A stretch of DNA of 64,000 bases from the NCBI GenBank assembly GCA_964440805.1, contig CAYTTR010000009.1, positions 1,658 through 65,657 of the forward strand. The letters are read 5' to 3'. Shown here in pieces: positions 1,091 to 34,304 of this stretch. Made by a program: the position numbers and the translations under genes. Numbering within the stretch: position 1 is the stretch's first letter; each line of letters opens with the position of its first letter. The DNA is from an uncultured Eubacteriales bacterium (lineage in GTDB: Bacteria; Acidobacteriota; Aminicenantia; Aminicenantales; Aminicenantaceae). The notes under the pieces are model-generated. The model did not search any database and had not been told where the DNA came from. It saw nothing but the letters and a program-made list of their open reading frames with translations.

Positions 1091-3304
1091 TTGATCGACC
1101 AAAAGATAATCAAGGACCACAACCTGACAGAAGAAGAATTCCAAAAAATAGTTGAACTTATCGGCCGCGAACCAAACCTGACCGAGCTGGGAATATTTTC
1201 TCTTATGTGGTCAGAGCACTGCAGCTATAAAAGCTCCAAGATTCATTTGAAAAAATTCCCAATTTCCGGGGAAAGAGTGATTCAAGGACCGGGAGAGAAT
1301 GCAGGTATTATCGATATCGGTGAGGGAATGGCGGCTGTTTTTAAAATTGAATCCCACAACCATCCTTCTTTCATAGAGCCCTACCAGGGAGCAGCCACTG
1401 GGGTAGGAGGCATTCTGAGGGATATTTTCACCATGGGTGCCCGGCCTATAGCTCTTCTGGATTCTCTGCGCTTCGGTCCTCTTGAAAACCAGAAAAACAA
1501 AGTAATTATGGAGGGTGTGGTTTCAGGCATATCAGGTTACGGCAACTCTACCGGTGTACCTACCGTAGGTGGTGAAGTCTACTTTAATAAATGCTATTCC
1601 CTGAATCCTTTAGTCAATGTTTTTTGCTTGGGATTGGCCAGAAAAAATAAAATTTTTTATGCCAAGGCTGAAGGTATTGGAAATCCGGTGCTTTATGTAG
1701 GCTCTAAAACTGGACGGGATGGAATCCATGGAGCCACCATGGCCTCAGCCGAATTCGACGATGATTTCGAACAAAAACGGCCCAATGTTCAGGTAGGAGA
1801 TCCATTCAAGGAAAAACTTCTCCTGGAAGCCTGCCTGGAAATCATGGCCAAAGACCTGATTATCGGCATTCAGGATATGGGAGCAGCCGGCCTTACCTGT
1901 TCCACCACAGAGATGGCCTCAAAATCCGGGGCTGGAATCGAAATCGATCTTGACCTGGTCCCTCAAAGGGAAGAAGACATGACCCCGCACGAAATCATGT
2001 TGTCCGAATCTCAGGAAAGAATGCTTCTGGTGGCTAAGAAAGATAAAGTGGAAGAAATCCAGAAAATCTTCTCTAAATGGGATCTTGATGCAGTAGTAAT
2101 CGGCAAAGTGGTGGAAGGTGGACAGTTGAAAGTCAAATATAAAAGCCAAGTTGTAGTGGATATTCCCGTGAATGCAGTGGTCAATCTTTGTCCGGTTTAC
2201 CACCGGGAAGGGAAAGAACCTACAGAGAGAAAAGCTAATGTCCTGACCAAGCTCCCTCCTGCCCCAATCAATCTCGAGCAAGACTTCCTCCGTCTTCTTT
2301 CTTCTCCCACCATTGCCTGCAAAGAATGGATCTACAGACAATACGACCATATGGTTCAAATAAATACGGTTTTTCTTCCCGGAGCAGATGCTTCCTTATT
2401 ACGCTTGAAAGGAAAGAAAAAAGCTATCGCTATATCCCTTGACGGCAATTCCCTTTACTGCCGTCTTGAGCCAAAAAAAGGTGGTAAAATTGCGGTGGCC
2501 GAAGCCTGCCGGAATCTGACTTGTGTCGGAGCCTACCCGGTAGGAGTTACCAATTGCCTGAACTTTGGTAATCCCGAGAAACCGGAGGTCATGTGGGAAT
2601 TCAAAGAAGTTGTGGAAGGAATAGCCGAAGCCTGCCGGGATTTCAATATTCCGATAACCGGCGGGAATGTCAGCTTCTACAACGAAACTGGAGGAAAATC
2701 AATTTTCCCTACCCCCGTAGTTGGAGTCGTTGGTCTAATCGATGATATCAAGCTTACGGTTGATCCTGGTTTTAAAGAAGAAGGAGATTTTATCTTTCTT
2801 ATCGGAAACACCAGGGAAGAATTGGGAGGTTCAGAGTACCTCAAAGAAATTCACAGACAAGAACTGGGGCCAGTTCCGGAAATTGACCTGGAACTGGAAA
2901 AGAAAGTTCAGTTGCTTTGTCGACAAGCTATAAATAAAAAGCTTCTAAGGTCTGCCCATGATCTTTCTGAAGGAGGTCTGGCTGTAGCAATTTCAGAGAG
3001 CTGCTTCTGGAGTCCCCGGAAACTTGGCTCCACCATTTACCTTGAACCTGATCAACTGGCACATGTTTTTCTCTTCAGTGAAAGCCAATCTCGCCTTCTT
3101 GTTTCATTGAAAAAAGAAAAAGACTTTCTGGCTCTTTCGCAAGAAGTTAGAGTTCCCGTCTCCCGGTTGGGTCAAACGGGGGGAAAAATGATTTCCTTTA
3201 TTCAAGGTGATAAAAGCATTCTCTCTGTGCCAGTGGAACAGGCTTATTTTGCCTGGAAAAATAGCATACCTAATTTATTCAATCTATTGGGAGAAAAGGA
3301 ATAA
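1091..3304 (+). CDS. purL: phosphoribosylformylglycinamidine synthase subunit PurL (FGAM synthase II)
   Basis: 737 aa; TTG start with AGGAAGGAG SD; two AIR-synthase-related repeats typical of small PurL. Confidence 0.9.
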
Positions 3305-3323
3305 ATCCCGGAAACAAAGTCTA

Positions 3324-4214
3324 ATGAAGATCAATAAAATAACTAAACGCATTCACACCTGGATCATCACATTTCTCCTAATGTTTTGCCTCTTGCCTTC
3401 CTTCATGCAAGGACAGATCAGGATAAAATTTTCTACTGGTATTAATTATCTTTCTCTAAATGAAGTCAATCAAACTCTTGTCGACTGGAAAAAAAGCCTG
3501 GAACTCACCACCGCCACGATGCACAATTGGAATTTTACTGGAGGAAAGATAAAGGAACTTCATAAAGCTTTTGAATTTGAGGGAGAATTGTTGGCCGAAG
3601 TCTTACCTTTTCTTTCAGTGGGTCTTGGCTCAGGGTACCTTCATGGAGAATCTGAAGAAAAAGATACCTGGGCAACTTTAGACAGGGTTCGGGGAGATAT
3701 AGTTTTGGGAGAATACATTTATATAAGGCCTACCAAGGCCAGCGGTATTCCTGTAACTTTGAACCTTTATGCTCATCTTCCCTTGACATCAAGGTTAAAA
3801 CTTTTTCTTAAAGGAGGAGGAGGCTATCTCTGGGCTAAATACATTGAGCAGAATGGATTAAAGCTGGTTTCTGATGAACGCTTCAGCTATTCTGAATCTT
3901 ATAATACTTCTGGCAGCAGCCCCTTGGTTCAGGCTGGTTTGGGAATGCGCCTGGAGCTTAAACCAAACTTGAGCTTGGTAGTAGAAGGGCAAATCCGGAA
4001 AGCTAGAGTTAAAGGATTCACTGGTGAGAATAAAGCTGGAGATGAGGGTACTCTCTATTTCATTGAAGAACTCCAAGAAGAATCTGGCTCTTGGTTGGTT
4101 AAACATCTTTTGTCATCCGAGTTTCCAGAAGGAGAAAATATCCGGTCAGTCAAGGATGCTGTGGTTGATTTCAGTGGATTTTCACTTAAACTAGGTTTCA
4201 TAATAAATTTCTAA
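3324..4214 (+). CDS. putative outer-membrane beta-barrel protein (hypothetical)
   Basis: The track ORF 3207..4214 overlaps purL, so the start was moved to the internal ATG at 3324. That start gives a signal peptide (MKINKITKRIHTWIITFLLMFCLLPSFMQGQ). Alternating hydrophobic pattern and C-terminal ...INF aromatic terminus. Confidence 0.45.
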   Translation: MKINKITKRIHTWIITFLLMFCLLPSFMQGQIRIKFSTGINYLSLNEVNQTLVDWKKSLELTTATMHNWNFTGGKIKELHKAFEFEGELLAEVLPFLSVGLGSGYLHGESEEKDTWATLDRVRGDIVLGEYIYIRPTKASGIPVTLNLYAHLPLTSRLKLFLKGGGGYLWAKYIEQNGLKLVSDERFSYSESYNTSGSSPLVQAGLGMRLELKPNLSLVVEGQIRKARVKGFTGENKAGDEGTLYFIEELQEESGSWLVKHLLSSEFPEGENIRSVKDAVVDFSGFSLKLGFIINF

Positions 4215-8590: not shown

Positions 8591-9457
8591 TTGCCCATTT
8601 TAATTAAATCAGTTAAAAGCAAAAACCCTATTACTTCTTTTTTCCAAATTACCAGCGGGATTATCTTCATCTTTCTAATCATTTTTTTCCTAACAGCCGC
8701 CAGAGTTCCTATCCAAGAAACAACAGTGGAAACATGTTCTGTATGTCATGAGGAAGCAGGACTAAAATTCGCTTCCAATCCCCACTCATCAATTGAAAAC
8801 TGTTCTCTCTGTCACCCTGGGGAAAAAACTCATTTGGAAGAAGGAGGGGGTTCCAATATTTTTGCCTTTAAAGCTGAAGATATACCTAATCAAAAAACTG
8901 AAATATGCCTTCAATGCCACAGTAAAGAAGCGGGCCGATATCAATCAAGTCCTCATGGAAAATCTTCCTATGACTGCCTGACTTGTCACCAGATTCACCA
9001 AGAAAACTCCTTTCCATCGCTTCTAAAATCCGAGGAGACAAAAACATGTTCTTCCTGTCACGGGGAAATCTTGTCCCTTTTTCAGCTTAATGAAAAACAC
9101 CGTCTGCTTGAAGGAATCCTGAGTTGTTCAAGCTGTCACGACCCCCATGGCCCCTCGACCCAGACAATTATGGCCGGATTCAAGCATGAATCATGCCTTA
9201 AATGTCACCGGGATAAAGGAGGTCCATATCTTTACGAACATGGGGCCTCCCGTATAGAAGGGTGCACATCTTGTCACGAAGTTCACGGATCACCCAATCA
9301 GCATCTTTTGATAACCCAAAGTGTGGCTGATCTATGTTTCAGTTGCCATGGGGCTGCTCCTGCCTGGCATTCCCGCTTTGATTCCTATTCTACCAACTGT
9401 ACGGTTTGCCATACGGCAATCCATGGCTCCAATCTCAGTAAGATTTTCTTGAAATAG
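8591..9457 (+). CDS. periplasmic decaheme c-type cytochrome (MtrA/MtoA/OmaB-like)
   Basis: 288 aa; N-terminal hydrophobic anchor or signal sequence; 10 CxxCH motifs (CSVCH, CSLCH, CLQCH, CLTCH, CSSCH x2, CLKCH, CTSCH, CFSCH, CTVCH); first gene of a tightly spaced three-gene cluster. Confidence 0.75.
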   Translation: MPILIKSVKSKNPITSFFQITSGIIFIFLIIFFLTAARVPIQETTVETCSVCHEEAGLKFASNPHSSIENCSLCHPGEKTHLEEGGGSNIFAFKAEDIPNQKTEICLQCHSKEAGRYQSSPHGKSSYDCLTCHQIHQENSFPSLLKSEETKTCSSCHGEILSLFQLNEKHRLLEGILSCSSCHDPHGPSTQTIMAGFKHESCLKCHRDKGGPYLYEHGASRIEGCTSCHEVHGSPNQHLLITQSVADLCFSCHGAAPAWHSRFDSYSTNCTVCHTAIHGSNLSKIFLK

Positions 9458-9467
9458 GAGGAAGAGA

Positions 9468-11330
9468 ATGAAACAAACAAAATATATTCCTCTAATAATG
9501 ATTATCCTCTGGCTGAGCCTGGTTACTCTCGGCTATGCTGAAAACAATGATAAAGATTTCTCCCTGAGCTTCCGCCTTGGATACCGGGCAGTGGATCAAA
9601 GTGGAACCCTCCAAAAATACAAAGAAGATATTAATTTAGAAGATGGAATGAGACTTTTTGATTTTACTTTCAAACTGAGCCCCACAAATGAATTGAGCAA
9701 GCTATTTGACCGCGTGGATATAAATGTCTTTAACTTCGGAGGAGATCCTTTCGAAGCCTTAACCCTGTCTGTCCAAAAATACAGCACTTATCAAGTCCAA
9801 TTCAGCCGGAAAAAATCATCCTATTATTACGCCGACCAACATGAAACAGGAGGAGTCATTTACAATCCTCATACCTTTGATTTCAGGAGAATCACCGACA
9901 GCGGACTCCTCAAGATTTGGCTTCTTCCTTCGGTTAACTTTTATTTGGATTTCAACCGTTATGACAAAAGCGGCGAGAGTATTACTACCCTGGATATTAA
10001 CAGGATAGAATTTGAATTTAACCAGCCGATTCAAGAAAAAAGCAAAGAAATTGCCGTTGGATTGAATGCTCAGCCTTTCAAGGAATTCTCGGTCGTACTT
10101 GAAGAAAGAATACTTGATTATGAGAACTCCAACAGTCTTTTCCTCCCAGGGTATGCTGACGGCGGCGAAGGAGCCAGGTATCCTTCTTCATTGAACTTTT
10201 TCAATCTCAATCAACCATACACCTTGAAAAGTTACAGTCATACCTTGAAAATTTATTCCCAACCAATAAAAAGAATTCTCCTCTCCGGCTCTGCTAAAAT
10301 AACCGACCAGGATCTTGATTTAACCTACCAGGAATCAGCTGATGGAATTAATTACCTGGGAAAATTTTTTGATTATTCTTTTCCGGGAATGGGCAAATTT
10401 CAAAGAAAGATTGGTCTTTATGACCTTGACCTTTCTTTTCTTTTATTTGACCGGCTGGCAATTACCGGCGTAATAAGATACCACGATTTTGAACAAGAAG
10501 GAGAAATGACTGTTTCCGGAGAGAAAAAGACCATGGATTTGAACTATGACACTCTCAGCCTGGAAGGAGGAATTCAGTACCGATTTTCATCTGTCATCGG
10601 TTTGCTTGCCGGTTATCGAAACGAGACCCGCACTCTTGAGGGAGTAGAAACGGTAGATTACGAAGAAAAAACGGTAAGACAGGGATTGTTTGGAAACATA
10701 AAGGTCAGTCCTTCCCGGAAATTTACTCTCAATGCCGATTATCAGTTTGGAACCTATGATCACCCATTTACTCTTGTTTCGCCAGCCGAATTTCACCGCT
10801 TCTCTGCCAAGGCCAGATTAAACCAAAAGCTTGTTTCTTTTTCTGCTTCCTATATTTTCACCAAATCAAAGAACGATATTTGGCAAAACGATTGGTCCTC
10901 CACCAGGCATAACTTTGCCTTTTCAGGAAGCTATAAGGGTAAGAACATTAATGGTTCGGCCAGCTATTCTTATGTTCTGCAAAAACACCAAGGGAACCGA
11001 CAGGTAGACTATCCACCCTCTTTTTCCGGACCAGCAGGAACTTTCCTCTGGGAAATCCTCTATGAAGGAAAATCAAATATCCTTAATGGAAACTTATCCG
11101 CCAAGATGGCCGAAAACTGGAATATAGGAGGATTATTTAATTATTACACTAATAAGGGTTTCTGGGAAATTTCCCGCCTCTGGCTCAAAGGTTACATTGA
11201 ATATCTTTTTGAAGAGGGGTTCTTAGCCCAAATAGGGTATCGGTATGTTGATTTCAAAGAGAAAGACTCAGGATTTAATGATTATTCAGCCAATATTCTG
11301 GAATTATCCTTTGGCTACCGCTGGGAATAA
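9468..11330 (+). CDS. outer-membrane beta-barrel porin-like protein (MtrB/OmbB-like sheath of a porin-cytochrome conduit)
   Basis: 620 aa; signal peptide MKQTKYIPLIMIILWLSLVTLGYA; Y/F/W-rich alternating strands throughout. The 11-nt and 15-nt intergenic gaps, each carrying an SD, couple it to both flanking cytochrome genes. Confidence 0.6.
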   Translation: MKQTKYIPLIMIILWLSLVTLGYAENNDKDFSLSFRLGYRAVDQSGTLQKYKEDINLEDGMRLFDFTFKLSPTNELSKLFDRVDINVFNFGGDPFEALTLSVQKYSTYQVQFSRKKSSYYYADQHETGGVIYNPHTFDFRRITDSGLLKIWLLPSVNFYLDFNRYDKSGESITTLDINRIEFEFNQPIQEKSKEIAVGLNAQPFKEFSVVLEERILDYENSNSLFLPGYADGGEGARYPSSLNFFNLNQPYTLKSYSHTLKIYSQPIKRILLSGSAKITDQDLDLTYQESADGINYLGKFFDYSFPGMGKFQRKIGLYDLDLSFLLFDRLAITGVIRYHDFEQEGEMTVSGEKKTMDLNYDTLSLEGGIQYRFSSVIGLLAGYRNETRTLEGVETVDYEEKTVRQGLFGNIKVSPSRKFTLNADYQFGTYDHPFTLVSPAEFHRFSAKARLNQKLVSFSASYIFTKSKNDIWQNDWSSTRHNFAFSGSYKGKNINGSASYSYVLQKHQGNRQVDYPPSFSGPAGTFLWEILYEGKSNILNGNLSAKMAENWNIGGLFNYYTNKGFWEISRLWLKGYIEYLFEEGFLAQIGYRYVDFKEKDSGFNDYSANILELSFGYRWE

Positions 11331-11345
11331 AAACAGGAGGAGGCT

Positions 11346-13487
11346 ATGAAAAATATACTTAGGATTTTGATGATTACTGTAATATTACCGGGAGCAGTTG
11401 TTTTCATTGCCGGAGCCAAAACGGATAATTTTACCGGACTCCTGTCCCTGGTTTCCCATGCTGAAAAGCTCTGGCAAAGTTCAGGCCATGCCGACTCAAA
11501 AGCAGAAGCCTTTACCCATTGGGATGAGGAAGGTTCTATTCCCACTTCTTGCGCCAAGTGCCACTCCACACCTGGTTTTCAAGATTTTCTGGATAATGGT
11601 GAGGTTAACAGCCCAGCCCCACTGGGCACCACAATAGAATGTGAAGCCTGTCATATAAACAAGGAAACCGGAGCTGTTCGGGAACATACAGCGGTTACTT
11701 TTCCCTCTGGAGCGGTAGTAGAGAACCTGGGACCTGAAGCTCTCTGTATGGAATGCCATCAAGGAAGAGCTTCAAAAAAAGATGTTGACATGACTATCGA
11801 CAGCGCCGGTGTCATTGATCCGGACACCCCTTCTTCTTTGTTAAGGTTTGTCAATATCCACTACTATGCGGCTGCCTCTACCCAGTTGGGAACACTTGTT
11901 GAGGGAGGATATGAATATCAAGGAAAATCATATGATGCCCGGTTTTCTCATTTAACCGGCTATAATGCCTGCATAACTTGTCATAATCCTCATTCTCTTG
12001 AAGTGGAATTGGGTCCTTGCCATACCTGCCATGAAGGAGTGAAAGACCCCAAGGATATCCGTTATTACGGGTCGTTTGTTGATTATGACGGAGACGGTAA
12101 TATCACTGAGGGTATGTTTTACGAAATTGAAGACATTAAAAACATCCTTTATCAGGTAATGCAGAGTTATGCCCGGGAAGTGATTAATATTCCTATTGTT
12201 TACGATTCTCATACTTATCCTTATTTCTTCACCGATGTAAACGGGAATGGAGAGCCTGATCCCGAAGAGTTGAACTACGGAAACCGGTATACTTCTTTTT
12301 CCGCCCGCCTGCTCCGGGCAGCTTATAATTATCAGGTTGCCCAAAAAGATCCCGCGGCTTACGCCCACGGCGGCAAATATATTATCCAGATTCTTTATGA
12401 TTCAATAGAGGATCTTAACCGTCAGCTGGCTTCTCCCCTTTCTTTAAACGTAGCCAGAGTAGATGAAGGTCATTTCGACGGATCATCTGAAGCCTGGAGA
12501 CATTGGGATGAAGACGGCGAAGTTCCAAGTTCATGTTCAAAATGCCATAGTGCCGAAGGCCTTGCCTATTTTCTGGAAAATGGAGATTTGGCTTCCCAGG
12601 AAATTTCCAATGGAATGTTATGTGCCACTTGTCATACAACCCCTCCTCATGTGAGACGAGTCGGTCAAGTGACCTTTCCTTCCGGCGAAGTAGAAGACAT
12701 GGGAGACACTTCCAATCTTTGTCTTCAGTGCCATCAAGGACGGGCTTCAAAATATTCCGTGGAGTCAACTATTGCCTCTTCTCCCGGGCCTTACGGGTTT
12801 ATAAATATCCATTACTTTCCGGCTGCAGCTGTTCTTTTCGGCTCTGAAGTCAAAGGGGGATTTGAGTACGCCGGGAAAATCTACGCCGGCCAGCAAACTT
12901 TCCCCAATCATTTAGGCAAATTCGACACTTGTGTTGAATGTCATATGGGAACAAAAAGTGAAGCCAAGCCTTACGACCATCAAGGGAGACTCCACAATGT
13001 CCAAACACCTAATCCTGAAGATTGTGTCTACTGCCATGGACAGGATATTTCCCAGCCGTATCCGGGCGCAGATCCGGCTAAATTCAGTTTTGAGGGGATC
13101 AGGCCAGCTTCCATTCCCGACTTCGATGGGGATGGAAACCGGAGTGAATCTATTAAAGACGAAATTAAGGGTCTGGAAAAAGAACTATATGCCTGGATAC
13201 AAAAATATGCTTTGGAAAAACTGGGAGCTCCCATTGTTTACGATTCTCACAACTATCCTTATTTCTTCAATGACCTCAATGCCAATGGCAAAGTCGACCC
13301 CGGGGAAAATATTTATCCCAATCAATTTAGGCAATTTAATACCCGGCTTCTCAAAGCAGCCTATAATTTTCAGCTTAGTAAAAAAGAACCCTGCGGATAT
13401 ATTCATAATGCCTGGTATGTGGCTCAGCTCTTGGTGGATTCAATTATCGACTTGGGAGGAGATTCGGCTAAATACTCCTGGCGATAA
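11346..13487 (+). CDS. large decaheme c-type cytochrome with internal tandem duplication (candidate outer-surface MtrC/OmcB-like cytochrome)
   Basis: 713 aa; signal peptide; 10 CxxCH (CAKCH, CEACH, CMECH, CITCH, CHTCH, CSKCH, CATCH, CLQCH, CVECH, CVYCH). The two ~350-aa halves share W(R)HWDE(D/E)G..P.SC.KCHS, VYDSH.YPYFF.D.N.NG..DP.E and RLL(R/K)AAYN(Y/F)Q. Confidence 0.7.
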   Translation: MKNILRILMITVILPGAVVFIAGAKTDNFTGLLSLVSHAEKLWQSSGHADSKAEAFTHWDEEGSIPTSCAKCHSTPGFQDFLDNGEVNSPAPLGTTIECEACHINKETGAVREHTAVTFPSGAVVENLGPEALCMECHQGRASKKDVDMTIDSAGVIDPDTPSSLLRFVNIHYYAAASTQLGTLVEGGYEYQGKSYDARFSHLTGYNACITCHNPHSLEVELGPCHTCHEGVKDPKDIRYYGSFVDYDGDGNITEGMFYEIEDIKNILYQVMQSYAREVINIPIVYDSHTYPYFFTDVNGNGEPDPEELNYGNRYTSFSARLLRAAYNYQVAQKDPAAYAHGGKYIIQILYDSIEDLNRQLASPLSLNVARVDEGHFDGSSEAWRHWDEDGEVPSSCSKCHSAEGLAYFLENGDLASQEISNGMLCATCHTTPPHVRRVGQVTFPSGEVEDMGDTSNLCLQCHQGRASKYSVESTIASSPGPYGFINIHYFPAAAVLFGSEVKGGFEYAGKIYAGQQTFPNHLGKFDTCVECHMGTKSEAKPYDHQGRLHNVQTPNPEDCVYCHGQDISQPYPGADPAKFSFEGIRPASIPDFDGDGNRSESIKDEIKGLEKELYAWIQKYALEKLGAPIVYDSHNYPYFFNDLNANGKVDPGENIYPNQFRQFNTRLLKAAYNFQLSKKEPCGYIHNAWYVAQLLVDSIIDLGGDSAKYSWR

Positions 13488-15177: not shown

Positions 15178-15657
15178 TCAAGTTATTACTTTGTCAATAT
15201 CTTTTTCGCCATAATCGGCAAATTCCTGAGCCAGAGCATATTCGCTTTTCAACATAAGAAAGTGGCTGTGCTCGATCCGGCTGAGATACTCTAAAATAGA
15301 CCTGCTTTTGCCTTCGGTTTTCCGGGAGAATTCTGCATAAAACCTCTCAGCAGCTTCTTCTGCTTTCATTGCCTGGTTTAATATATCTACTAAGGAAGTA
15401 TCGGCCTTTAAGTTTATTGAAGGAATTAAGACATCATCTGCTTTTTCCGGAATATCAAGATTTTCCTGAGGATATAATTTTTCCGTCAGTTTTTCCAATA
15501 TCTGCCTGTGCTTTTCTTCTTCAAAAGCCAGCATCCGGAATTTTTCTTTAAGAAGCGGATTCTGGAGGCGGGATGAAATTTCAGAGTATACTTGGTAGCT
15601 GTCAATTTCTGACCGTATTGCCAGCCCGAGGAGTTCAGGCACATCTTTATCTATCAT
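15178..15657 (-). CDS. ferritin-like diiron-domain protein (rubrerythrin-like, no rubredoxin domain)
   Basis: 159 aa; paired E..H four-helix-bundle motifs (EEEKHRQILEKL, RIEHSHFLML); paralogous to 25398..25865 and 33852..34304. Confidence 0.55.
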   Translation of the reverse strand: MIDKDVPELLGLAIRSEIDSYQVYSEISSRLQNPLLKEKFRMLAFEEEKHRQILEKLTEKLYPQENLDIPEKADDVLIPSINLKADTSLVDILNQAMKAEEAAERFYAEFSRKTEGKSRSILEYLSRIEHSHFLMLKSEYALAQEFADYGEKDIDKVIT

Positions 15658-19040: not shown

Positions 19041-19192
19041 GGAGAACATCAGGTATGCCCAGAGCGACATTGAGGCGTTATTCTTCTCAAGCTACTCTTC
19101 GAGGGAATCCGACTTTGTCGGACGGCGAGGATGCAGTGAGAGAAAGGCGAAAAAGCGCCGAAGTAAAGCAAAGAGCATACCTGATGTTCTCC
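19041..19192. repeat. GC-rich intergenic element bounded by a perfect 18-bp inverted repeat
   Basis: GGAGAACATCAGGTATGC (19041-19058) / GCATACCTGATGTTCTCC (19175-19192) flanking a ~116-bp GC-rich core; same architecture as 13503-13700. Confidence 0.5.
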
Positions 19193-19296
19193 TGTTCAAT
19201 GGATTCAACCACACAAAAAGGAAGAAAACCAAATGTTTTAACAAAATGATATTGAGGCGATAGGTTAAATAAATTCTTTCGGATTAGTCAACATTT

Positions 19297-19305
19297 TTGG
19301 TATAA
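19297..19305 (+). promoter_or_regulatory. candidate extended -10 promoter element (TGgTATAAT) for the Cbc-type cytochrome gene
   Basis: TGGTATAAT at 19297-19305, 35 nt upstream of ATG 19340, with GGAGAAGGA SD at 19321-19329. Confidence 0.35.
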
Positions 19306-19339
19306 TGGACGGCAGAAAAAATGGAGAAGGATTGGGGTC

Positions 19340-20911
19340 ATGAGAACAAAAAAGAGAGCCAATTCATCCCTCTGGGTTATGCTGATATTCTTTTGTCTTG
19401 CCGGAATATGCTATCTCTTTCCTCAAGAGTCTAACCAAGACTATGAAAAAATAACCAGTGATGATTGCAGCGGATGCCATGAGAAAAGTAAACATGGAAC
19501 AGACTTCACACAAGACCTCTCCCATTCTATCCATGAAGGATTTGAATGCTTAGACTGCCATCTCGATAAGAAAACCTTCCCTCATCAAAAAATACCTGAT
19601 TTCGAATTACCTTGCCATAGCTGCGCTTCCTGTCATGAAGAAGAAGCCCAAACATATAAAATTCACGGATGAGCTTTGGTAGCCGAATGTCAAGATGCGC
19701 CGTCTTGTGCAGGCTGTCACGGTGAGCTGGTAAGCCGAGGTCAGACAGATGCTCCGGTATGCACTGACTGCCATGGAGAACACGGCATCTTTTCTCCTAA
19801 TGATCCCCGCTCACCAGTTTCCAGCATCAGATTGGCTGAAGCCACCTGTGCCCCCTGTCATGAATCCGTCAGGCTCTCGGAAAAGTACGGCCTTCCCCTG
19901 GGGCGTTTGGCCTCATTTATAGACAGTTACCACGGCCTGAAAACAAAAGCCGGAGATCAATATGTGGCCAATTGTGCTTCCTGCCACGGAGTTCATAAAA
20001 TACTGCCCAGTTCTGATCCGGAGTCCACAATCCATCCCGCTAATCTTCAAAAAACTTGCGGCGAGTGTCATTCCGGGATTTCTGCTGAATTGGCCCAATC
20101 CCCCATTCACGGCCTGGGAGGTGAAGGCCTCCAGACCAAAGCTGCCAGCATTGTTCAGAATATCTATATTGCCGCCATTATTATTATTATCGGACTAATG
20201 GGCATCCATTGGCTTATCGACCTTATCAGGCAGATAATTTTGGTTGCCCGAAAAAAACCTCAGGTCAGGCGGATGAATGCCAATGAACTCTGGCAACATA
20301 CCCTTCTCATGCTCAGTTTTATTGTCCTGGTTGTCACCGGCTTCTCTCTCAGGTTTGATCAGGCCTGGATTACACGGTTTTTCTTCGGCTGGGAAGGCGG
20401 TTTTAAACTGAGAGGAACCATCCACAGAGTGGCTTCGGTTGTTCTCATCGTGACTACTATATGGCACGTTATTTACCTTTTCTCCAGGAGAGGCCGGAGA
20501 TTTTTTGTCGATATGTGGCCCCGCTTAGGTGATTTCCGCGACTTTATTCAGAAAATCTTGTTTAATCTGGGACTTTCCAAAAAAGAACCCCGGTTCGGGA
20601 GATTCAGTTATATCGAGAAAGCTGAGTATTGGGCTCTTATCTGGGGAAATGCAGTGATGATAGTAACCGGAATACTTCTTTGGTTTGACAATTATTTTGT
20701 CAGAATTTTCCCCAAAGGAGTGCTTGATGTTTCTTTGGTCATTCATTATTACGAAGCCATTCTGGCTTCTCTTGCCATTTTAATCTGGCATCTGTACTCT
20801 ACCGTCTTTAATCCCCGCGTCTATCCCATGAATCCTTCATGGCTTACCGGCAAAATGCCGGAAGACATGTTTATTCACGAACACCAAGCAGTCAAAAAAG
20901 AAGAGATTTAA
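19340..20911 (+). CDS. inner-membrane multiheme cytochrome c fused to diheme cytochrome b (Cbc/CbcL-like quinol oxidoreductase), interrupted by one in-frame TGA at 19670-19672
   Basis: Track ORFs 19340..19672 and 19676..20911 are in the same frame, separated by TGA plus one codon. Only the first ORF has a signal peptide. There are 3+5 CxxCH motifs, then five His-bearing TM helices of PF01292 type (HydC/FdnI-like). Confidence 0.6.
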
Positions 20912-21218
20912 TTAGCCTGGATTATTCACCAGTCGAGGTTGCCGTAGATACGAGGCACAGGGCACGCAGCTGTGGTCTCTCCACCGCAAGTGTCCTGTAA
21001 CGAAGTAGATGCGCCAAGCGCGGCTCGCCTGAAGGGTAAAAAAGGCTGGTTTTAGATAAGATTTGATGAAAGGATTTAATGAACTTAATTTCTTTACCTA
21101 CACCACAATAAAACCTCTTAAGTCATAGGTATTTGTGATATAAAAAGTATCGGCCTTTTTTATGAATGGTTCAGGTTAGTCAAAGAAAATAAAAAATAAA
21201 ATAAACAAACAAATTATT

Positions 21219-25397: not shown

Positions 25398-25865
25398 TCA
25401 AGGACCAATGTGAACAAATTCCTCACCAAAATGAAACTCTTCAACATTGTAATAATCAGGAAACTTTTCCAGGAGGTCCATCTCGGATTTTATTATATAG
25501 TAATGGCTTCTTTCTACTCGAGTCAAGTACCGGAAAATCTTATTGCTTTGAACACCAGCCACTTTCTCTGATGCCTTATGATAAAATTCCTCAGCAGATT
25601 TCTCTGCTTCCAAGGCTATTTTGAATAAATCTTTCACTGAAGATTGGTCATCAATTTTCGCTTGACCGTAAGCAAGAAAAGATTCCCCAGGCAATTTTAG
25701 AGGAGATTCCGGGAACTTCCGGGTAAAAAATCTTTCCAGGAGCTCTTTGTGTTTTTTTTCTTCCATAACAAGGAATTCGATCTTCTTGAGAAGCAGCTGG
25801 TTGCGTATGAGCTGCTTCAAATGAGAATAATAATCTGCAGCTTCAACTTCAGATTTAACGGCCAT
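25398..25865 (-). CDS. ferritin-like diiron-domain protein (rubrerythrin-like paralog)
   Basis: Track ORF 25398..26027 overlaps the rubrerythrin gene by 95 nt (25933-26027), so the start was moved to the internal ATG at 25865 (GAGGAA SD upstream). E..H motifs (EEKKHKELLERF, RVERSHYYIIKSE). Confidence 0.5.
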   Translation of the reverse strand: MAVKSEVEAADYYSHLKQLIRNQLLLKKIEFLVMEEKKHKELLERFFTRKFPESPLKLPGESFLAYGQAKIDDQSSVKDLFKIALEAEKSAEEFYHKASEKVAGVQSNKIFRYLTRVERSHYYIIKSEMDLLEKFPDYYNVEEFHFGEEFVHIGP

Positions 25866-25932
25866 GGAAATAATTTCCTCGGGAGTGAGATTTTTAACTT
25901 CTCTATATTCCTTCACAGTTAAATACCTTGGT

Positions 25933-26436
25933 TTAAAATTCTTCAAATTTTTCACGAGGGGAACCGCAAACAGGGCATTTTGCCGGAGCTTCGCCTTCGA
26001 CCGTGAAACCGCACACAGAACAAACATTTAATACCGTAATATCAGCATCTTTCCCTTGAGCAGCTGCTTCTTTAGCCTTCTTGTATAATTTTTCATGAAC
26101 CTTTTCAGCCGCCAGGGCCCAACTTGTTGCGGTTTCCGCTCCTTTTTCTCCTTGCTTACGGGCAACTTCGATATAGACGGGATACATTTCGTTGACCTCA
26201 AAACCTTCTCCTTCAATGGCGGTTTCGAGATTCTCTACAGTGCTTTTAATTCCCGAGAGAGTGCGGAGGTGATTGGCGGCATGGATTTGTTCAGCATATG
26301 AATTGGCCCGGAAAAGCCTGGCGATGTTCTTGAAATTCTCTTTTTCTGCTTTTTCAGCAAAAGACAGATACCTCATATGAGCCTGACTTTCTCCGGAAAA
26401 AGCTTCTTGGAGATTAATTCCGGTCATTTTTTTCAT
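25933..26436 (-). CDS. rbr: rubrerythrin
   Basis: 167 aa; diiron four-helix bundle (ESQAHMRY, EGEGFEVNEMYP, EKVHEKLY) plus C-terminal rubredoxin-like CxxC...CxxC. Confidence 0.85.
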   Translation of the reverse strand: MKKMTGINLQEAFSGESQAHMRYLSFAEKAEKENFKNIARLFRANSYAEQIHAANHLRTLSGIKSTVENLETAIEGEGFEVNEMYPVYIEVARKQGEKGAETATSWALAAEKVHEKLYKKAKEAAAQGKDADITVLNVCSVCGFTVEGEAPAKCPVCGSPREKFEEF

Positions 26437-33851: not shown

Positions 33852-34304
33852 TTAATAACCTTCTAAAACACGGGTTTCATATTCGCTTTCCAGACGGAGC
33901 TTATGCGATTTCTCTTGAGCCACCAGGAATTGAAAAAGCCTTTTTATTTCCTCGGATTTTGCCCGCTCGGCCAGATCACTGTAAAGCTCCACTGCTTTCT
34001 GCTCTTTCTTGGCAGCAAAGATTAAAATATCCTGAAATTTCATATCCTCTTCAAGTGGTTCTTCCACCAGATAATCGGAAATCTTCATATCATCAACCCT
34101 TGGAATTGAACCGGTTTCAAGGATTTTCCTGTCCAGTCCTTGGAGCAATCGCTTGTGATTCATTTCTTCTGACTGAAGATCACTGAGAAGTTCTTTCAAT
34201 CCCGGAGTCTTGGCTTTTTTTTGAAGCTCACCATATCTGTTTATGGCTTCTTCCTCCCTTTCTATGGCAAATTGAATAACCGAATCGAAATCAGAAAAAT
34301 CCAT
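33852..34304 (-). CDS. ferritin-like diiron-domain protein (rubrerythrin-like paralog)
   Basis: 150 aa; E..H motif pairs (EREEEAINRY, EEMNHKRLL, AQEKSHKLRLE). Confidence 0.55.
   Translation of the reverse strand: MDFSDFDSVIQFAIEREEEAINRYGELQKKAKTPGLKELLSDLQSEEMNHKRLLQGLDRKILETGSIPRVDDMKISDYLVEEPLEEDMKFQDILIFAAKKEQKAVELYSDLAERAKSEEIKRLFQFLVAQEKSHKLRLESEYETRVLEGY

Follow-up and report, generated by a model that had tools for sequence, protein, structure and literature searches.

A very probable recent pseudogene of a CbcL-type bc cytochrome in an Aminicenantes-like bacterium

The inner-membrane cytochrome CbcL of Geobacter sulfurreducens carries nine CxxCH motifs in its N-terminal half, with residues 30-279 as the periplasmic domain; its membrane helices and a diheme-b domain of the HydC/FdnI type occupy the C-terminal half (PMC9129911; PMC6295460). 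Homologs of CbcL, MtoC and MtrH have been reported from 15 phyla, contain between 3 and 23 heme motifs and are often encoded beside mtrAB or mtoAB (PMC6295460). Here we analyse a gene of this kind, located at positions 19340-20911 of a 64,000-nucleotide stretch of contig CAYTTR010000009.1 (this whole stretch is hereafter called the window), in which a single TGA codon divides the reading frame. We consider the locus to be, very probably, a recently inactivated unitary pseudogene of a CbcL/MtoC/MtrH-type bc cytochrome that bears two lesions, the TGA being one and an in-frame deletion of 345 bp the other. By its architecture the encoded cytochrome belongs to an already known group, and the case reveals no new mechanism; the relevance of the case lies mainly in annotation and metabolic inference.

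One reading frame in two pieces

Two open reading frames (ORFs) lie in one frame with only TGA-GCT between them, and a direct reading of the window at 19658-19684 gives ...AAA ATT CAC GGA TGA GCT TTG GTA GCC.... The elements of the locus, listed below, include one codon whose ancestral state is given by a sister contig, by the Logan contig SRR28875795_2696 (hereafter L003) and by the corresponding column of a homolog alignment.

19340..19672, + strand: ORF1, 110 amino acids, start ATG, stop TGA
19676..20911, + strand: ORF2, 411 amino acids, start TTG, stop TAA
19340..19672, + strand: 5' remnant of the cytochrome gene, with the N-terminal signal/anchor helix and heme sites 1-3 (CSGCH, CLDCH, CASCH)
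19670..19672, + strand: nonsense codon TGA, ancestral AGA (Arg) according to the sister contig, L003 and the homolog column
19673..20911, + strand: 3' remainder of the frame, in which the deletion junction lies between heme site 4 and heme sites 8-11, ahead of the b-type membrane domain
19717..19725, + strand: deletion junction with the single copy of TCACGGTGA that was kept, 345 bp fewer than in the sister strain
20135..20911, + strand: predicted membrane domain, a linker helix and then an FdnI/HydC-like four-helix cytochrome b (PF01292, hydropathy and FdnI alignment)

The N-terminus of ORF1 is basic and hydrophobic (residues 7-31, Kyte-Doolittle maximum 2.17) and precedes three CxxCH motifs; the whole of ORF1 aligns to residues 1-110 of homologs that are approximately 640 amino acids long. 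ORF2 lacks an export signal of its own and displays five CxxCH motifs (CAGCH, CTDCH, CAPCH, CASCH and CGECH), all of which are N-terminal to its first membrane helix, and then five hydrophobic segments. According to hydropathy, the two parts together possess six membrane segments, namely the N-terminal helix, the linker helix and the four-helix domain.

The b-type domain of ORF2 is recognized by the cytochrome-b family PF01292 (E=3e-11, 43.9 bits against a cut-off of 30.1), and the ORF2 region also matches TIGR01583 (5.4e-12), below the cut-off of that model. Its four C-terminal helices align to FdnI of Escherichia coli (1kqf_C) with E=1.8e-5 when a single sequence is used and with 1.8e-4 when a profile is used. 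In the profile alignment H320, H362, H469 and H484 (numbering of the fused frame), which are invariant in the family alignment, fall on four histidines of FdnI that we take to be the heme-b ligands His18, His57, His155 and His169 of the 1KQF structure. The window copy keeps all four of these predicted heme-b histidines.

Matches of ORF1, in the region of the N-terminal helix and the first heme sites (19340-19580), are weaker, both to PF03264 (NapC/NirT; E=0.0012, 19.1 against a cut-off of 24.1 bits) and to TIGR03153 (NrfH; E=4e-6, 26.9 against 134.2 bits), and all NCBIfam matches of the locus are far below their equivalog cut-offs. Homologs of the fused frame carry precomputed PF03264 matches as well. 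The likeness to PF03264 and TIGR03153 might be driven by heme-motif spacing alone, or it might reflect a NapC-like anchor combined with an FdnI-like b domain.

By architecture alone, the intact gene would encode a CbcL/MtoC/MtrH-type inner-membrane bc cytochrome. Fragments of CbcL that were machine-read, in garbled form, from the alignment in the supplement of PMC9129911 gave only a 23-residue match (E=0.06), to the protein P0001; the same fragments, compared with a database of 5.8 billion proteins, retrieved three short proteins that are unrelated or uncertain, none of them CbcL-like. An AlphaFold2 model of the protein P0003, built from a 31-sequence alignment, reached a mean predicted local distance difference test score of 53.7 and had a poor heme domain, as is expected without cofactors.

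An earlier note, made from the letters of the window alone, had already described the single frame with its TGA-GCT interruption, the signal-type N-terminus with three CxxCH motifs upstream, and the five further motifs without signal peptide ahead of a cytochrome-b domain with five transmembrane segments downstream; these observations agree with ours. Its proposal that the two ORFs constitute one polypeptide, which combines a multiheme c with a diheme-b domain, likewise holds in view of the homologs presented below. Two of its statements need to be corrected. The count of eight c hemes overlooked the deletion, and the domain order is not inverted with respect to CbcL, in which the c domain also precedes the membrane helices (PMC9129911; PMC6295460).

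Two lesions relative to intact relatives

Homologs were searched with the fused translation as query, an X being placed at the stop. The set consists of 120 listed matches, among them the window's own 411-residue ORF2 product, and the 119 others were compared in a 120-sequence alignment. The matches listed are single proteins of about 640 amino acids that cover 80-100% of the fused length with E<=4.4e-232; the lengths of all 120 range from 411 to 692 amino acids (median 643), or from 624 to 692 once the ORF2 product is left aside. Since the fused frame matches single proteins, the two ORFs do not stand side by side by chance. All 119 homologs are single chains, and 118 of them contain 11 CxxCH motifs, compared with 8 in the window remnant. 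Every one of the 119 has residues in a block of some 115 columns where the window sequence is gapped, and the fused frame, at 523 amino acids, falls about 115 residues below each homolog. At the column of the stop codon the homologs display arginine in 107 cases, threonine in 3, histidine in 2 and tryptophan in 2, with the others occurring singly and cysteine in none. Where sources are named, the homologs stem from Aminicenantes/Acidobacteriota, Fidelibacterota and Neomarinimicrobiota, as metagenome-assembled genomes (MAGs).

Both lesions become visible at the nucleotide level through comparison with a contig of GCA_048622495.1 (L001), an Acidobacteriota MAG that represents a sister strain. 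Its DNA is 97-98% identical to that of the window, and the two have in common the downstream genes for a radical-SAM protein, endonuclease III, a class II ribonucleotide reductase (RNR) and rubrerythrin. At the stop site the sister contig reads GGA AGA GCT; the window codon is thus an AGA-to-TGA change, an A-to-T transversion at codon 111. Together with the arginine column, which the earlier note had proposed to inspect, this identifies AGA as the ancestral codon. The second lesion is located shortly after the first. In the sister contig TCACGGTGA is found at 309 and at 654, exactly 345 nucleotides apart, and in the window there is one copy; here ...TGTCACGGTGA is joined to GCTGGTAAGC..., the junction reads TGTCACGGTGAGCTGG, and the BLAST segments between window and sister contig overlap at 19711-19725. 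The deletion is in frame and removes 115 codons with heme sites 5-7 (CGICH, CNDCH and CGKCH) as well as conserved histidines. A loss of 345 bp between 9-bp direct repeats is a typical signature of slippage or of microhomology-mediated deletion. The sister contig is intact across both lesion sites and ends inside the 5' part of the gene, its position 1 corresponding approximately to window position 19408.

More distant relatives place the intact gene at the same site. L003 and a second contig, L004, are about 79% identical to the window at the DNA level and possess an intact gene with a product of 647 amino acids between the NAPRTase (nicotinate phosphoribosyltransferase) and radical-SAM genes, with AGA at the site of the stop. 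The gene order of both contigs is that of the window, from rubrerythrin through RtcB, archease, NAPRTase, the cytochrome, radical SAM, endonuclease III and RNR onward; an M24 peptidase gene lies upstream on L003 only, not on L004. Ten neighbour genes of the window encode products equal in length to those of L003, which indicates that the window is not generally error-ridden.

The ratio of non-synonymous to synonymous substitution rates (dN/dS) between window and sister contig amounts to 0.13 for the cytochrome gene (23.5 synonymous and 11.5 non-synonymous differences), 0.19 for radical SAM and 0.15 for RNR. As no relaxation is apparent, the inactivation would have to be very recent, relative to the divergence of approximately 2-3% between the two strains.

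In order to illustrate what the lesions would mean for the protein, it is helpful to consider the intact chain. This chain of about 640 amino acids is predicted to comprise an export/anchor helix, a periplasmic domain with 11 c hemes, one linker helix and a four-helix bundle with two b hemes. On the model of CbcL, menaquinol would be oxidised in the membrane and electrons would pass via the b hemes and the chain of c hemes to periplasmic carriers, and presumably onward to an outer-membrane porin-cytochrome conduit. With the AGA-to-TGA change at codon 111 as one lesion and the in-frame deletion between TCACGGTGA repeats as the other, translation would end at codon 111, and the product would be no more than a three-heme stub anchored in the membrane. 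Re-initiation of ORF2 at the TTG at 19676 may occur; the c-heme sites of such a product would not be loaded with haem through the known Sec and Ccm pathway, because no signal peptide stands ahead of the five CxxCH motifs.

Competing explanations for the interrupted frame

The earlier note had considered three origins for the TGA, namely a recent inactivating mutation, recoding, and a sequencing or assembly error. We favor the mutation, the evidence speaks against recoding, and plain assembly error appears unlikely. As regards recoding, TGA terminates 25 of the 55 long ORFs in the window, in line with the statement of the note that it ends other genes there, and the TGA-ending genes for RtcB (473 amino acids), NAPRTase (455) and RNR (710) encode products of exactly the same length as their L003 orthologs; stops at ortholog lengths imply the standard genetic code. 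Genetic codes that read TGA as sense (tables 4 and 25) were discarded in view of those 25 ORFs. Selenocysteine sites normally align with cysteine in homologs. The selenocysteine reading was rejected as well, given arginine rather than cysteine at the column, AGA in the sister strain, the folding result and the tRNA content of the window. For the folding, a hairpin of the bacterial selenocysteine insertion sequence (bSECIS) type, for which the earlier note had suggested a search, was sought in the 91 nucleotides after the UGA: the best structure, at -27.8 kcal/mol, is just as stable as dinucleotide shuffles are on average (mean -27.7, z = -0.02). A tRNA-Sec is absent from the 64-kb window, in which a tRNA-Ala is the sole tRNA, and an Rfam scan returned noise only. 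That the UGA is decoded, whether as selenocysteine, by programmed readthrough or as a lineage-specific sense codon, to give one functional 8-heme bc cytochrome is therefore hardly credible, even though the frame continues past the TGA and beyond the deletion, a potential hairpin begins right after the UGA, and a neighbour ORF weakly matches a '(seleno)protein' model of the GSU2204 family (22 bits, cut-off 350). The almost identical sequence downstream of the site in the sister strain, which has AGA there, weighs against any such hairpin signal. A related proposal would combine leaky or regulated UGA readthrough, yielding a low level of 8-heme bc cytochrome, with a deletion that rebuilds the heme wire in a modular fashion instead of marking decay; all that speaks for it is the frame that stays open through both lesions, the range of 3-23 hemes among CbcL relatives and the low dN/dS, and we regard it as extremely unlikely.

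Another possibility is that the split is tolerated and functional, with ORF1 acting as an anchored tri-heme cytochrome similar to NrfH or CymA and ORF2, re-initiated at TTG 19676, as its b-type partner. Re-initiation is conceivable with a TTG four nucleotides after the stop, ORF1 has its NapC/NirT and NrfH matches well below the cut-offs, the b domain retains all four heme histidines, and dN/dS is still low. Nonetheless, orthologs encoded as two genes, the arrangement to which the earlier note had drawn attention, were encountered in 0 of the 119 homologs, and the split is known from this strain only; the CxxCH sites of ORF2 would be neither exported nor haem-loaded, conserved histidines and three hemes are gone from the chain, and recency explains the low dN/dS equally well. 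A functional split is thus very unlikely. One or both lesions could instead be artefacts, such as a sequencing error, a chimeric deletion introduced by multiple displacement amplification (MDA) or the consensus of a minor variant, in which case the organism would have an intact 11-heme gene. The locus does lie on a metagenome-assembled contig, and in two related assemblies the contigs end within the gene or close to it, which could point to strain heterogeneity. Against this, the Logan contig SRR7048220_62361 (L002, 1861 bp) is 100% identical to window 19100-20960 with both lesions included. Plain assembly error is unlikely because an independent Logan assembly has both lesions and a 9-bp repeat, which is far below assembler k-mer size, cannot collapse in a k-mer assembly. 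Furthermore, it is improbable that a single 1.6-kb gene would collect two independent errors when ten neighbours have exact ortholog lengths; a second lesion is, by contrast, expected once the first has made a gene neutral. Altogether, we judge an artefact improbable.

Several points nevertheless weigh against a recently inactivated pseudogene, which remains our preferred explanation. The in-frame deletion alone might be tolerable in a family with 3-23 hemes (PMC6295460), which leaves the nonsense codon as the sole clearly disabling lesion, and low-level natural readthrough of a UGA may be conceivable. A raised dN/dS was looked for in the cytochrome gene relative to the sister contig and not found, so that an independent evolutionary sign of a pseudogene is missing. 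The Logan contig may share reads with the MAG; its identity excludes an assembler-specific artefact rather than a library error or chimera such as one produced by MDA. Finally, the contig breaks at the locus may reflect strain variation or polymorphism within the population.

As for the breaks themselves, L002 ends at 19100 and 20960, just outside the gene, and L001 ends inside it. An exact-sequence look-up of the 110-residue ORF1 product found it only on Logan contig SRR7048220_62361, which gives no sign of the truncated allele in other samples. A search of Joint Genome Institute (JGI) metagenomes with CACGGANGAGCTTTGGTAGCC for other carriers of either allele returned three matches, all of them chance hits to unrelated sequence. 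A contig search with the family protein P0123 retrieved four loci only, at 61-69% identity over nearly the full query length, and the species' own representative was not among them.

Gene neighbourhood, consequences and known systems

The window also contains candidate partners of the cytochrome, approximately 6 kb upstream of the broken gene:

8591-13487, + strand: a 288-amino-acid decaheme protein, a 620-amino-acid putative beta-barrel and a 713-amino-acid decaheme protein in a row, all of which look intact

The 288-residue decaheme is DmsE/MtrA-like (162.6 bits against a DmsE-family cut-off of 192.2) and has doubled CXXCH domains, and the trio resembles a porin-cytochrome outer-membrane conduit of the MtrAB/PCA type. 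The putative barrel, at 9468-11330 (+), contains no CxxCH and has only a faint beta-barrel match. It also matches NCBIfam NF041027 (GSU2204 family CXXCH-containing (seleno)protein) with 22.3 bits, the cut-off being 350, and this family adjoins a GSU2203-family decaheme in Geobacter.

Two of the more distant loci, L008 and L011 (about 68-69% identity), carry a homolog of the 713-residue decaheme some 3-4.5 kb from the bc-cytochrome gene and on the opposite strand; the barrel homolog of L008 likewise lies within 6 kb of that gene:

L008, 11178-13913: conduit homologs, barrel and second decaheme
L011, 12382-13914: conduit homolog, second decaheme

In these sequences, the linkage between bc cytochrome and conduit genes is conserved, in a different arrangement. 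L003 displays the reverse of the situation in the window: its bc cytochrome is intact, and fragments only of the three conduit genes are found at 2869-4101, between Thy1 and the M24 peptidase, corresponding to residues 9-136 of the 288-residue decaheme, 478-620 of the barrel, and 1-92 and 652-713 of the 713-residue decaheme. It thus seems that the lineages of the window and of L003 have each been deprived of a different part of one pathway. Genes are commonly lost through nonsense mutations and through deletions at microhomology. The two cases together hint at a piecemeal loss of extracellular-electron-transfer capacity in this Aminicenantes-like clade.

With regard to the organism, rubrerythrin-like ORFs are found at 25398-26436 (-), 15178-15657 (-) and 33852-34304 (-), and the syntenic ORFs of L003 bear a Pfam rubrerythrin annotation. 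The window further encodes an RNR of class II, which depends on adenosylcobalamin, and RtcB paired with archease. Rubrerythrins, class II RNR and RtcB-archease fit an anaerobic, Aminicenantes-like organism of 42% GC.

The consequences concern the way such loci are catalogued. The ORF2 product is 100% identical to a 411-residue protein listed as a stand-alone entry in NCBI-sourced and Logan data, and the Logan gene calls at the locus are two separate genes. Since ORF2 thereby appears as an ordinary protein, a miscount is possible: pathway surveys could list the MAG as a carrier of a CbcL-type quinol oxidase although the gene is very probably dead.

Among known systems, the intact family resembles in architecture CbcL (GSU0274, WP_010940947.1) and the CbcL/MtoC/MtrH group, whose members act as quinol oxidases or quinone reductases in extracellular electron transfer. 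In CbcL, too, one chain with about six membrane helices begins with a multiheme c domain on the periplasmic side and ends with a diheme-b domain. The clade described here differs from CbcL in the number of hemes, with 11 in intact members and 9 in CbcL, and the window copy departs from the whole group in that its two domains are not on one uninterrupted polypeptide and three heme sites are gone. The C-terminal domain is similar to FdnI, the cytochrome b556 (gamma) subunit of formate dehydrogenase-N from E. coli (1KQF chain C), and to HydC of Ni/Fe hydrogenases (PF01292). FdnI, however, is a separate subunit that reduces menaquinone together with molybdenum and iron-sulfur partners, whereas in the family described here an extra helix connects the domain to multiheme c sequence on the same chain, and no iron-sulfur or molybdenum partner lies nearby. 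The tetraheme quinol dehydrogenases of the NapC/NirT/NrfH/CymA type share with ORF1 an N-terminal membrane helix directly followed by CxxCH motifs; in contrast to them, the family described here continues with at least seven further hemes and a b domain.

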